A stretch of 64,000 nt of DNA from a virus, in the IMG/VR virus record IMGVR_UViG_3300042905_004067. One strand, written 5' to 3'. The translations under genes and the position numbers were made by a program. The notes beneath the pieces are model-generated. The model was not told where the DNA came from and searched no databases. It saw only the letters and a list, made by a program, of their open reading frames with translations. Shown here in pieces: positions 27,785-50,917 of this stretch (positions are counted from its first letter, which is position 1; the number at the start of each line of letters is the position of its first letter).

Positions 27785-27812
27785 ATTATATCAGACGAAA
27801 CAGTTATGTCAA
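27785..27812 (-). promoter_or_regulatory. sigma70-like promoter TTGACA-N16-TATAAT
   Basis: Exact hexamers, 16-bp spacer. Confidence 0.75.
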
Positions 27813-27814
27813 AA

Positions 27815-28115
27815 AATAAATCCGGTTTTTCAGATGCGGGAAAACCGGGAAACCCCACTGCTTCAAGCAGCCATTGCCAGTTCGTTGGCAATTATATTTG
27901 CAACTGTTTATTTACGACACTTGTTACCCGTGTCGGGTATCTCCTTCTTTCATACTCTGCTCCAGTCGATGCCATTCAGCCCCTTAAATGCCCCGCTGCA
28001 ACGAGGACTTGTTTCGCCATCCCTAAAGTTTGCAGAGGCTTTAGGTTAGGCTAATGGAGCCGAGGGGATTCGAACCCCTGTGCTGTTAGCATTTCTGTCC
28101 GAGATCAACAATACC
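27815..28115 (-). ncRNA. ssrA: Permuted (two-piece) tmRNA, tag ANIIANELAMAA
   Basis: Acceptor piece ..CAGGGGTTCGAATCCCCTCGGCTCCA (ends 28055) precedes the 5' piece GGGGCTGAATGGCATCGAC (starts 27983); G3-U70; PK1 ACCCGACACGGGT..GTGTC; tag ORF 27901-27863; terminator hairpin follows. Confidence 0.88.
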
Positions 28116-28118
28116 AAA

Positions 28119-28199
28119 AGCGTAGTGAGGGACCTGCACCCATGCTCAATCACCGTTTGCAACCAATGATCCTAGTAGGCATCACACACCTAGCCACGC
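28119..28199 (-). ncRNA. Atypical tRNA-Cys(GCA)-like element
   Basis: GCGTGG/CTACGC acceptor plus U discriminator, loop TTGCAAA, T-loop-like TGCAGGT; irregular stems. Confidence 0.4.
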
Positions 28200-28214
28200 A
28201 TATACCTTATATAG

Positions 28215-28379: not shown

Positions 28380-28408
28380 ATTGTAAATTAAAGTTTAGCG
28401 CGTGTCAA
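28380..28408 (-). promoter_or_regulatory. sigma70 promoter TTGACA-N17-TACAAT for tRNA-Gly/Tyr/tmRNA unit
   Basis: Hexamers 8 nt upstream of tRNA-Gly. Confidence 0.75.
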
Positions 28409-34687: not shown

Positions 34688-35689
34688 TTACCACCCACGA
34701 TTAAAACTCACTTCTTCTCTATTTCCAGAGAATGATATGTTTGCATTTAAGAACTCTAATGTATTTGAAATAAATTCAGTCATTTTAAGCAAACTACTAA
34801 ATTGATGTAGAAACCCTTTGTAGTATACTTTGAATACGCCAACTGTTTCTAAAACATCACACTTATTTATGATGAGATAATCACAACCAGAAAGTTGCAT
34901 TGATTCAATCAACTTATCAAGATTTAACCAATTTACTAGTCTCTTACGGCCGGTTGTGGAACCGTATTCTTGGCCAAGTTCAATGATTCGATTTAGTGTT
35001 TCATCCTCCCATAAAGTTTCAGGGAACAGTGGATCTACACCACTTTTCGTATCGTAGATTTTAGCAACACCAATACTACGACCAATGTACTTTGGAGGAA
35101 TACCAAGAGAACATGCTCCGTATGGTAAAGTAGTACTACTCGTCACAAATGGATAGTTTCCATGATCAATATCAAGCCACACACTTTGTGCTCCTTCACA
35201 TAAAACTGCACCAGAAAGATGTCCATCCCAGATATACTGAGCATCTAGAACATCTTTTGCTTGTGTACCACAACGAAGCATCTTATCGGCATAGCATGGA
35301 GCAATTCCTTGTCCTGTAGTTCCAAACTTCTTTTTTAATTCTTTCATGTCTCGTTCAATATGCTCATCTGTGATGATATGAGCATGAGGAGAAACTTTTA
35401 CAAGAGAGACATCAAAACCATTTTGCTCCAAGTAAGAAATTTCTTGTAAAAACTTATTTACATGAAGAACACATCCAGGACCAATAATTGATTTTTTACC
35501 TTTAAAAATTCCACAAGGAACACTGTGTGTTTTATACTTTTTGTCTTTGATGTAAACGGTATGTCCCGCATTTGGACCACCATTCCATCGACAAACATAA
35601 TCGTATTCGTGCGCGATTGCATTAGAAATTTTTCCTTTGCCTTCGTCGCCCCATGCGAGTCCATAAATTACGTCTGCATAATCAATCAT
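34688..35689 (-). CDS. purA: Adenylosuccinate synthetase (short form)
   Basis: WGDEGKGK, GGPNAGHT, GTTGQGIAPCYADK, EGAQ, YPFVTSS, EYGSTTGRKR. Confidence 0.95.
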   Translation of the reverse strand: MIDYADVIYGLAWGDEGKGKISNAIAHEYDYVCRWNGGPNAGHTVYIKDKKYKTHSVPCGIFKGKKSIIGPGCVLHVNKFLQEISYLEQNGFDVSLVKVSPHAHIITDEHIERDMKELKKKFGTTGQGIAPCYADKMLRCGTQAKDVLDAQYIWDGHLSGAVLCEGAQSVWLDIDHGNYPFVTSSTTLPYGACSLGIPPKYIGRSIGVAKIYDTKSGVDPLFPETLWEDETLNRIIELGQEYGSTTGRKRLVNWLNLDKLIESMQLSGCDYLIINKCDVLETVGVFKVYYKGFLHQFSSLLKMTEFISNTLEFLNANISFSGNREEVSFNRGW

Positions 35690-38313: not shown

Positions 38314-38474
38314 CTTCCTAGTTTTTGCTTAACAATTTTTGGCAAACAACCTTCTCGTTCAAGTCGATCAAGTGTCTTTTTGCTTGCATTTAGTAGCAAT
38401 AGTTGATCACGACGCTTTCGAAGTTTGCGGCGACGACTAATTCTAAGTTTGTTTTTCTTATCAGTGCTGTTCAT
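38310..38474 (-). CDS. 54-aa highly basic protein ([22 protein letters not shown]...)
   Basis: Hand-translated; ATGA overlaps with both neighbours. Confidence 0.55.
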
Positions 38475-39535
38475 AATGAATCTCCATAAACTGTATTGAG
38501 TTGACGATTAACACGAATGAATGTACAACATTTTGGTAAATCTTTCAAGTGTCTTGCACCAACATAAGTGCAAGCAGATCGAACACCACCCAAAATTTGT
38601 TGAATAGTTTCTTTTACCGGACCTTTTGCATCCAAGTATACCGTTTTACCTTCTGCCGCTCTATATTGTGCGACTCCACCAAAATGTTTATCCATACAAC
38701 TTTTTGATGACATTCCATAAAATGGAATTTTAATATTTCCATTTTCATCTTGTAGTGAATTCATTTCAGACTCGTCATGCCCTGCCAACATACCACCTAG
38801 CATAACAAAGTCTGCTCCACCACCAAATGCTTTTGCAACATCTCCGGGTATCGTACAACCACCGTCTGCAAGAACGTGTGCGCGAAGCCCATGTGCTGCA
38901 TCGGCACATTCAATAATGGCAGACAGTTGAGGATAACCGACGCCAGCAACTTTTCTAGTAGTACAAACACTTCCAGAACCAATACCAACCTTTACTATGT
39001 CTGCTCCTGCAAGAACTAGTGCTTCTGTCATTTCAGGAGTTACAACATTTCCTGCAATAATGATTTTATTTGGGAATAATTGCCGAATGCGTTTTACATA
39101 ATCAACAAATTTTTCTGTATATCCATTTGCGACATCAATGCAAATGAATTTTACGTTGGTACATATTTTTAAAATATCTGTTGCTTTTGAGATTTCTTGA
39201 TATGGATCATGTGTCATACCAAGAGTATAAACTAAATTCTCACAATGTAGATAGCCATTTACTAATGAATTTTCGTAATTAGTAATCCACTCCTGAACCG
39301 AATAGAATTTATTAATACCACATAGCATATAGTATGGCTCTAGACTTTTTGCCATACTAAAAGTACCAACACCTTCCATATTTGAAGCAATGATTGGTAC
39401 TCCTTCCCACGTTAATCCACTTGGGAATTTAAAATTCCTGTTTAGTTCTACTTGCTTTCTACTAACAAGTGTGCTGCGTTTTGGGCGAATTAAAACATCA
39501 CTAAAATCTAACTTAATGTCATTTTCAATTTTCAT
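38471..39535 (-). CDS. guaC: GMP reductase
   Basis: [48 protein letters not shown]. Confidence 0.95.
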
Positions 39536-45278: not shown

Positions 45279-45307
45279 TTGCATTCAAGTGGCATTTCCA
45301 GTACAAT
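45279..45307 (+). promoter_or_regulatory. Early sigma70 promoter TTGCAT-N17-TACAAT
   Basis: Upstream of Gp88-like gene. Confidence 0.7.
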
Positions 45308-45335
45308 CTATGCACCAAACGAAAGGACTACTGCT

Positions 45336-46085
45336 ATGACTATCGCTCTCGCTCAACTTGCTCCCATTCACGCTCCCTGCGCTACCACCACGGACATCGA
45401 TCCGATTCATGACGGCTACGCACACAGTTACGCGGATCACCAACTCTGTGATGCATCGTGGGGTACGCTCGATGCTCTCACTGGCGGCTTGTCGTTGCCG
45501 TCGAAGATGCCGGGTCATTCGTTCTCGATCAGCGCGAAGCGTTGCAAGGTTGGCGCTGCGCTGCGCAAGGTCGCTGGCTCTACTTGCAGCAAGTGCTACG
45601 CTCTGAAGGGTCGGTATGTGTTTCCGAATGTGGCTGCTGCAATGGAGCGCCGGTATCAGAAGATGCGCTCTAACTCCACGGTGTGGGCTGCTGCAATGAT
45701 CGCCAGCATTCGTAAGACTGGCGATAAGCACTTTCGCTGGCACGACAGCGGAGACTTGCAGGGGATGAATCACCTCTTCGCCATCACCGTGATCGCGGAA
45801 GCCACTCCGTGGGTGCAGCACTGGCTGCCCACTCGGGAGTATGCGTTGGTGCGTGAGTATCTGCGCCAGTATCACCACTTCCCGGTGAATCTCACGGTGC
45901 GCGTGTCTGCGCCCATGATCGGGTCAGTCGCCAGTGAGTGGGAGAACAGCAGCAGCGTCGATGCTACTCGCACTCCCATGACTGCGTGGGTCGATTGCCC
46001 TGCGTCGAAGCAGGGAAACAAGTGCATGGACTGCCGCGCTTGTTGGGATAAGGATGTCGAAGTCGTCAACTACAAGAAGCACTAA
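45336..46085 (+). CDS. Gp88-like phage protein (Cys-cluster)
   Basis: SKMPG..C..CSKCYALKGRY..FRWHDSGDLQ..HWLPTRE..CPA..CMDCRACW; start MTIALA after GAAAGGA. Confidence 0.75.
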   Translation: MTIALAQLAPIHAPCATTTDIDPIHDGYAHSYADHQLCDASWGTLDALTGGLSLPSKMPGHSFSISAKRCKVGAALRKVAGSTCSKCYALKGRYVFPNVAAAMERRYQKMRSNSTVWAAAMIASIRKTGDKHFRWHDSGDLQGMNHLFAITVIAEATPWVQHWLPTREYALVREYLRQYHHFPVNLTVRVSAPMIGSVASEWENSSSVDATRTPMTAWVDCPASKQGNKCMDCRACWDKDVEVVNYKKH

Positions 46086-49486: not shown

Positions 49487-50917
49487 ATGGCTACCGCTCT
49501 CTCTACCAAGCAGTCCGCGTTCGTTTCCGCTCTCGCCTCCATCACCACGATCTCGCCCGTGAAGCGCGCGGATCTCGTGGCCGCTGCCGCCAAGTGCGGT
49601 ATGGCGTGCCCTCCCGCGTGGATCGTCAAGGACACCGCCCGCAGTGCGGGTCGTGGCCTGTTCCACGTGCCGGAACTGAAGGGTGAGCAGATGGTGCTCA
49701 CGCCGGCTGCTGCTGCGCCTGCGCCTGTCGTTGCTCAGGCGGTGCGCGGTTCCACCCCAGTCATCAGCAGTGCTTCCGTGCTCGGGATGACCGGCGGCGA
49801 GCGCATGACGCTGATCCCCGACAAGATCGATACCTACGTTCCGTGGGGTCACTTCGCGTCGATTGAGTCGATCCTGCGTTCGCGGCTGTTCTCGCCCATG
49901 TTCATCACGGGTCTGTCCGGCAACGGTAAGACGACGATGGTGGAGCAGGTCTGCGCCAAGTTGAAGCGTGAGTGCTTCCGCGTCAACATCACCGCCGAAA
50001 CCGACGAGAGCGATCTGCTCGGTTCGTTCGGCCTCGTTGACGGCAACACCGTCTGGCAGGATGGTCCCGTCACGGTTGCGCTGAAGCGCGGTGCCGTGCT
50101 GCTCCTTGACGAGATCGATCTCGGCACGGAGAAGATCATGTGCCTTCAGTCCGTGCTTGAGGGTAAGGGCGTGATGATCAAGAAGATCGGCCAGTTCGTG
50201 CATCCGGCTGATGGGTTCACCGTCATCGCGACCGCGAACACGAAGGGTAAGGGCGACGACAACGGACGTTTCGCCGGTACTCGCATTCTCAACGAAGCGT
50301 TCCTTGACCGTTTCGACTTCACCTACGAGCAGTCGTATGCTCCCAAGGCGACTGAGAAGAAGATTCTCACCAAGAAGATGGAGAAGTTCGGCAAGATTGA
50401 CGAGAAGTTCGCAGAGAACCTTGTGCGGTGGGCGGAGATCATCCGTGCCACCTACGAGGAGAACGGGATTGACGAGATCATCACCACGCGCCGCCTGGAG
50501 GGCGTGTGCAAGGCGTTCGCCATCTTTGGCGACCGCATGGAAGCGGTGAAGATGTGCGTTTCCCGGTTTGACGAACTGACTCGCCAGGGTATGCTTGACG
50601 CTTACACCAAGGTCGACGCCGAGGTGAACCCGGTGAGCGCGACTCAGACCGCCGAGGAGGCGCAGGGTCCGCAGCCCTACGATGCGTCCAAGACCTACGC
50701 TGCTGAAGCGATCAACTCTGCGAAGGTTCTCTGGCTGATGGCGGCCAAGTACGAGGACCGGAACGATGTCAAGTCGGCGGGAGCGATGTGGGACCCTGCG
50801 AACAAGAAGTGGGGTATCTCGCCTTCCATGTACTGGTCCTCGCCTGCGACCTGGAACAAGTACGAGCCGCGTCCCGTTGACATGAACGGGCAGATCCTTC
50901 CCTCGTTCAACGCCTAA
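49487..50917 (+). CDS. MoxR/CobS-like AAA+ ATPase with C-terminal DUF5710-like domain
   Basis: GLSGNGKT, LLLDEID, ATANTKG, NEAFLDRF, ITTRRL; C-terminal VKSAGAMWDPANKKW. Confidence 0.9.
   Translation: MATALSTKQSAFVSALASITTISPVKRADLVAAAAKCGMACPPAWIVKDTARSAGRGLFHVPELKGEQMVLTPAAAAPAPVVAQAVRGSTPVISSASVLGMTGGERMTLIPDKIDTYVPWGHFASIESILRSRLFSPMFITGLSGNGKTTMVEQVCAKLKRECFRVNITAETDESDLLGSFGLVDGNTVWQDGPVTVALKRGAVLLLDEIDLGTEKIMCLQSVLEGKGVMIKKIGQFVHPADGFTVIATANTKGKGDDNGRFAGTRILNEAFLDRFDFTYEQSYAPKATEKKILTKKMEKFGKIDEKFAENLVRWAEIIRATYEENGIDEIITTRRLEGVCKAFAIFGDRMEAVKMCVSRFDELTRQGMLDAYTKVDAEVNPVSATQTAEEAQGPQPYDASKTYAAEAINSAKVLWLMAAKYEDRNDVKSAGAMWDPANKKWGISPSMYWSSPATWNKYEPRPVDMNGQILPSFNA

Follow-up and report, generated by a model that had tools for sequence, protein, structure and literature searches.

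Does a short segment on the minus strand of a viral DNA stretch of 64,000 nucleotides (hereafter the window) encode a working tmRNA in two pieces, and if so, which tag does it carry and to which lineage does it belong? A preliminary description had claimed a phage-encoded, circularly permuted tmRNA at this locus. Reading the sequence, we find a circularly permuted tmRNA gene at 27811-28118 on the minus strand, whose parts follow one another in the order T-arm, acceptor 3' strand, a 71-nt segment, acceptor 5' strand, PK1, tag frame and a hairpin with a U-run. The Rfam 15 model tmRNA_permuted (RF04321; gathering score 47 bits), into which the alpha, beta and cyanobacterial tmRNA models were merged (PMC11915505), matches 27863-28115 over its full length (model positions 1-213) with a score of 73 bits and an E-value of 4e-12. 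The claim is upheld by this search, although the cut-offs of the clade-specific alpha, beta and cyanobacterial models are not reached by the window, and by the covariation among relatives set out below. The gene is real, well supported and ordinary in kind, and its carrier is a lake-type, uncultured, T4-like phage. We put at about 85% the probability that it is a genuine, functional two-piece tmRNA (ssrA) gene of this phage, akin to the genes of alphaproteobacterial type in Melnitz-like aquatic myophages.

Searches with the exact 5' half recovered two viral and five metagenome contigs among the matches listed, while the block spanning the tag end and helix 5 matched at least 119 viral contigs and the PK1 block 61. 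A first pattern scan for the acceptor end returned mostly tRNA-Ala genes, nhmmer searches with the two pieces against the collected loci gave weak matches only, and co-folding of the two pieces yielded an energy gain no better than that obtained with a shuffled partner. Members were extracted on structure alone, as loci in which a T-arm is immediately followed by a 7-nt strand fully complementary, G3-U70 included, to a downstream strand of the form GGG..., which gave 119 members from viral contigs in IMG/VR, 96 of them unique. In all 119 the acceptor 5' half comes after the T-arm and the acceptor 3' half, and the family displays a 7-bp acceptor stem with G3-U70, a helix 2 joining the pieces and a hydrophobic-Ala-Ala tag. 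Conservation at the DNA level between family contigs is restricted to RNA genes, the flanking coding sequence having diverged beyond detection by blastn.

We counted an explicit model of 44 base pairs on the alignment of the 96 unique members (A3). Standard pairs fill 95.5% of the modelled cells, against 41-45% when partners are slid, and 25 of the 44 pairs have changed on both sides, in 393 cells; none of 500 shuffles reached these values. Covariation among homologs had earlier been named as a test of the two-piece reading, which passes it. Given that pairing and covariation among the unique relatives stand far above the slid and shuffled controls, the resemblance to a tmRNA is more than a chance likeness.

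Individual helices bear this out. The acceptor piece (28056-28118, its 5' end probably near 28118) carries the 3'-side strands of helix 2 (GGUAU, UGCU and CAG at 28115-28111, 28091-28088 and 28085-28083), the T-arm AGGGG/UUCGAAU/CCCCU (28079-28063; 100% paired, four of five pairs covarying) and the acceptor 3' strand CGGCUCC (28062-28056). The last pairs with the acceptor 5' strand GGGGCUG (27977-27983), which forms G3-U70 with U28058; this pair had been said to be retained, and it is indeed U-G in 96/96 unique members. Eleven kinds of acceptor 5' strand occur in the family, each with a matching 3' strand, and positions 4-6 covary; the stem is 86.6% paired, with some alignment rows off by one base. 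The 5'-side strands of helix 2, CUG, AGCA and AUACC, lie at 27965-27963, 27961-27958 and 27940-27936 (27936-27965 overall). Its outer part, GGUAU/AUACC, is 99.4% paired with covariation at four of five pairs, and its inner part, UGCU/AGCA with CAG/CUG (P2a/b), is 92.9% paired with all seven pairs changed on both sides, so that 11 of the 12 pairs of helix 2 have done so. Two joining helices had been proposed: AGCA/TGCT survives as part of inner helix 2, all of its pairs covarying, whereas GAGAT/ATCTC has its middle pair broken in 54/96 members, shows no covariation beyond shuffles and overlaps GGUAU/AUACC. As judged from covariation, the joins between the pieces are GGUAU/AUACC and UGCU/AGCA. 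PK1 (27900-27935) comprises stem 1, CGACAC/GUGUCG (27935-27930/27920-27915; 92.2% paired, three pairs covarying), and stem 2, GUAAC/GUUGC (27927-27923/27904-27900; 99.4% paired, three pairs changed on both sides), the latter with a matched C/G insertion in A3 rows (GUCAAC with GUUGGC). RNAalifold on six sequences skipped helix 2 and suggested two helices that were rejected: CAGUUGC/GCAUCUG, in favour of the covarying stem 2 of PK1, and a helix between the 5' and 3' ends, in favour of the covarying stem 2 of PK2.

The tag required correction. It had been given as ANIIANELAMAA, starting at GCA 27901-27899, but in the family the tag comprises eight codons and begins at GCC. The upstream GCA sits within the 3' strand of PK1 stem 2, and 1-nt indels between it and the next GCY leave it in frame in 27 of 52 unique tag regions and out of frame in the other 25; the 8-codon frame from GCY, by comparison, is intact in 52/52 unique variants (36 GCC, 15 GCU and one GGC). 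PK1 precedes the tag and the resume codon lies about 10 nt (9-11 nt) beyond it, after leaders of the AUAAUU type in the family tag regions (AAAUAUAAUU at 27899-27890 in the window). In Melnitz the resume codon has the same leader ahead of it (CUAUAAUU followed by GCA AAC GAC), and the AUAAUU type also stands before that of a one-piece phage tmRNA (L148). Both Rfam alignments (RF04321 and beta_tmRNA) pick GCC as the tag start, and ARAGORN with thresholds at 80% reports the tag ANELAMAA. Since the PK1 overlap, the indels, the intact frame, the leader, Rfam and ARAGORN agree, we take GCC at 27889 as the real start, and the predicted tag frame is GCC AAC GAA CUG GCA AUG GCU GCU UGA (27863-27889, stop codon at 27865-27863), that is, the eight residues ANELAMAA. 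Variants in the family include AAPMRMAA, ANQLAMAA, AAPMAMAA and ANYMAMAA, and the last two alanine codons show GCU to GCC changes that keep alanine (L417/L419, L418/L420). In every tag variant a hairpin of 4-8 bp covers the resume codon, in the registers AUUGCYA.../...URGCAAU or CCGCA/UGCGG (AUUGCCA/UGGCAAU at 27892-27886/27879-27873 in the window), which suggests that much of the peptide variation tracks RNA pairing. The window and L002 encode near-identical RNAs, nearly all of whose differences fall in the tag region 27873-27892, with the hairpin preserved in alternative registers.

Downstream, the stop codon lies in the loop of helix 5, CUGCU/AGCAG (27858-27870; 99.6% paired, with CG for UA in two members), which is followed by a PK2-type pseudoknot (27811-27857). 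Stem 1 of this knot, UGGG/CCCG (27857-27854/27840-27837), is invariant in the family and hence offers no covariation evidence; its 5' strand was part of the search motif that gathered the relatives. Stem 2, CCGGUUUU/AAAACCGG (27848-27841/27829-27822), takes the form of at least eight different complementary arm pairs across the family, e.g. GGUUC/GAACC, UGAUCC/GGAUCA and GGUCA/UGACC. As a U-run (27820-27811) follows stem 2 in the window, the stem seems to double as an intrinsic terminator (hairpin and U-run, 27848-27811), in agreement with the terminator claimed earlier. The next gene's putative promoter, TTGACA-16-TATAAT (27785-27812, 12/12 consensus matches), begins directly after and marks the 3' limit of the tmRNA gene. 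The description of the RNA as lacking PK2-4 does not hold, given the PK2-like knot; two-piece tmRNAs typically keep PK1 and PK2 only (reviewed in PMC3985003), so PK1, tag and PK2 constitute the typical layout rather than an extreme reduction.

These features bear on whether the RNA tags proteins at all. The tRNA-like part might instead soak up host SmpB or AlaRS and thereby block host trans-translation, with the tag left untranslated. Such a role has a precedent in mycobacteriophage DS6A, whose tag-less tmRNA is cited in PMC11915505 as inhibiting host tmRNA. A tag-less mini form also occurs in another viral contig: at L151:4831-4920, flanked by tRNA genes, an RNA some 90 nt long has the two tmRNA acceptor halves in their standard order but neither a tag frame nor pseudoknots, and resembles the DS6A form. 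Moreover, we found no SmpB gene in five partial family contigs of 108-137 kb (58-76% complete), nor one adjoining the tmRNA gene, whose neighbours code for a DksA/TraR zinc finger and a SpoU methylase. Yet the 8-codon frame, the stop in the loop of helix 5, the leader motif and the PK1 spacing are kept in 52/52 variants, and PK1 covaries; a decoy would need none of these, and their conservation makes this role quite improbable.

A functional two-piece tmRNA would have to be matured. CCA is encoded in none of the 119 members, which have UUA, UUC, UUU or CUN after the discriminator (A28055, then UUA, in the window), and in none of the window's nine tRNA genes, where U or CU follows each discriminator. 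A sigma-70-like sequence, TTGACA-17-TACAAT (28380-28408; 11/12 consensus matches), is the presumed promoter upstream of tRNA-Gly, from which the transcription unit likely runs through tRNA-Gly, tRNA-Tyr and an odd tRNA-like element (28119-28199) to the tmRNA; co-transcription with the upstream tRNAs is accordingly probable. Two-piece tmRNAs are processed by RNase P and tRNase Z (PMC3985003). By analogy with these and with the tRNA genes of the phage, which encode no CCA, cleavage would be by RNase P before G27983 and by an RNase Z-type enzyme after A28055, whereupon a CCA-adding enzyme would supply CCA and the 71-nt spacer would be freed. The acceptor stem and helix 2 would keep the two products associated: an acceptor piece of about 64 nt, to which CCA is added, and a coding piece of about 170 nt. 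Assuming compatibility with the host's SmpB, AlaRS and proteases, the RNA would be charged with alanine via G3-U70 and enter stalled ribosomes, where translation would resume at GCC 27889 and append AANELAMAA, the hydrophobic-Ala-Ala end of which resembles protease tags. On this sequence evidence, the host's SmpB, AlaRS and EF-Tu are most likely used for ribosome rescue and product tagging during infection, and the phage would gain by freeing ribosomes stuck on broken host messages. As a separate observation, the odd tRNA-like element directly upstream (28119-28203) is conserved together with the tmRNA in L002, L276 and L283 (blastn block 27804-28203), while in L285 it lies about 6 kb from the tmRNA; it escapes both ARAGORN and the Rfam tRNA model.

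The intervening segment (28054-27984) had been described as having two hairpins, and these do pair above slid controls: in the window's length class the hairpins are 78% paired, against 33-50% when slid, with GC/AU swaps, which amounts to moderate support. Presumably cut out during maturation, the spacer falls into discrete length classes among the 119 members (5-6, 11-13, 39, 71-74, 95-99, 122-136 and 165-173 nt). Spacers of 5-6 nt hold no module, those of 71-74 nt two hairpins and those of 95-99 nt three, and other modules occur at 122-173 nt; the shortest forms indicate that the spacer is dispensable for the tmRNA itself. The spacers of 122-173 nt (e.g. L001:1766-1938 and L285:811-980) share conserved blocks, such as GUUGAGAAGACUCG, GCGUAAAAC, GACAAAGC and AAUCCUUCC, for which we obtained no Rfam family at E below 0.001. 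These discrete, conserved and structured modules raise the speculative idea, to which we give a low probability, that maturation releases a second functional small RNA and that the covarying hairpin over the resume codon gates the start of tagging.

It had been anticipated that standard callers may miss the gene, and ARAGORN 1.2.41 at default settings indeed reports nine tRNAs and no tmRNA in the window. The same settings miss the whole family, as judged by the five members run (window, L001, L002, L269 and L285, 5/5 missed), as well as L135, L137 and L127; they do detect the tmRNA genes of Melnitz and Variovorax, both permuted, and that of L148, which is one-piece. Consequently, surveys based on ARAGORN, such as the one that called 53 of 133 unique phage tmRNAs two-piece, mostly in aquatic phages (PMC9004378), undercount these forms, which RF04321 finds. 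Among the genes missed, L135:1331-1588 (95 bits) and L137:2040-2230 (134 bits) are clear alpha-type and beta-type permuted phage tmRNAs respectively. The permuted phage tmRNA at L127:950-1110 (minus strand) is a minimal one: its spacer measures 18 nt, CCA is not encoded, no PK1 is obvious and the tag is DEQLLAAA. RF04321 matches it partially with 55 bits. The novelty implied in the preliminary description is not sustained: the two-piece tmRNAs of Melnitz and other aquatic phages are published (PMC9004378), and Rfam 15 detects the window gene. The gene leaves the understanding of trans-translation and of phage tmRNA unchanged. The gain lies in a structure model with good support, together with a corrected tag, for a widespread tmRNA family of uncultured phages, present in at least 119 IMG/VR contigs and with no member detectable by blastn in GenBank phages. 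The tmRNA database lists 79 phage sequences (PMC11915505).

The carrier contig is low in G+C (33-37%); its products include T4-type baseplate wedge proteins and PurZ-like and GMP-reductase-like enzymes, alongside nine tRNAs. A blastn search of the gene and the 20 kb around it against GenBank phages gave nothing or matches of T-arm size only. The predicted gp6 has at most 29% identity to Synechococcus myophages and the Methylophilales phage Melnitz, all Kyanoviridae, and this similarity places the phage near that family, Melnitz included. Two other features of the window deserve mention. The PurZ-like gene (34688-35689; a match to phrog_1211, an adenylosuccinate-synthetase relative) and a gene of the IMPDH/GMP reductase family (38471-39535) may point to an altered purine metabolism or to a modified base in the genome. 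Between 44000 and 56000 the G+C content is 52-57%, against 33-37% elsewhere, with long overlapping ORFs on both strands; a GP88-family protein is encoded at 45279-46085 and an AAA_5 ATPase at 49487-50917. This stretch may have been acquired as an island or may reflect a chimeric assembly.

As to lineage, the permutation had been suggested to be independent, i.e. to have arisen from a one-piece tmRNA, for instance of a Bacteroidota host, apart from the alpha, beta and cyanobacterial lineages. It is true that no clade-specific Rfam cut-off is reached by the window or by most of its relatives: the best such match of the window is to beta_tmRNA (RF01850), with 30.3 bits against a cut-off of 84; alpha_tmRNA (RF01849; cut-off 50) falls under that score and is dropped by clan competition, cyano_tmRNA (RF01851) is likewise outscored within the clan and short of its gathering score, and L001 and L285 have no clade-specific match. 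The family is also CCA-less like the one-piece genes of Saprospiraceae, which also contain the motif GGGGCUGAAUGGNNUCGAC and whose tags likewise end in AMAA. A scan of genome contigs with the 5'-half motif returned mainly one-piece tmRNAs of Saprospiraceae, Schleiferiaceae and Acidimicrobiia, with one permuted Variovorax gene, and identified no donor. However, the motif is also present in the alpha-type and beta-type phage genes L135 (alpha_tmRNA, 64 bits against 50) and L137 (beta_tmRNA, 124 bits against 84) and so does not discriminate between lineages. L360 and L397, with a coding piece nearly the same as that of the window, pass the alpha_tmRNA cut-off (58.5 and 55 bits against 50) and have the unusual T-loop of Melnitz, GGCAGUA, which recurs in L389 too. 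They link the family to the alpha-type genes of aquatic T4-like phages, a group known for alpha-type two-piece tmRNAs to which this phage belongs; the two-piece layout being the usual one as well, a separate permutation is very improbable. That the locus is a decaying relic or a chance tRNA-like sequence without function is hardly credible, as nothing beyond the ARAGORN miss speaks for it, while at least 119 contigs carry the tmRNA with compensatory changes throughout and it is far better conserved than the adjoining genes.

The window's two-piece tmRNA can be set beside three known systems. Melnitz (MZ577097.1, 46013-46345) and related pelagimyophages are, like the window, aquatic T4-like myophage carriers, and the Melnitz tmRNA (RF04321, 113 bits) has the same gene order, PK1-tag-PK2 layout and leader AUAAUU before an alanine resume codon. 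It differs in encoding CCA, in its 14-residue tag ANDNYVPVDYALAA against eight residues in the window, in a spacer of about 140 nt, in the glutamine riboswitch after the gene and in being found by ARAGORN; blastn detects no similarity between the two genes beyond the T-arm. With the betaproteobacterial form (RF01850), as in Variovorax soli (L248; beta_tmRNA, 79 bits) and phage L137, the leader and start of the tag align (UAAAU followed by GCC AAC GA) and a hairpin follows the tag, but the beta forms examined encode CCA and the window does not. Against the alphaproteobacterial two-piece tmRNA of the Caulobacter type (RF01849), the window has a short tag and no encoded CCA and stays under a cut-off that some family members exceed; the permuted order, the join by acceptor stem and helix 2, and the restriction to PK1 and PK2 are the same (PMC3985003).
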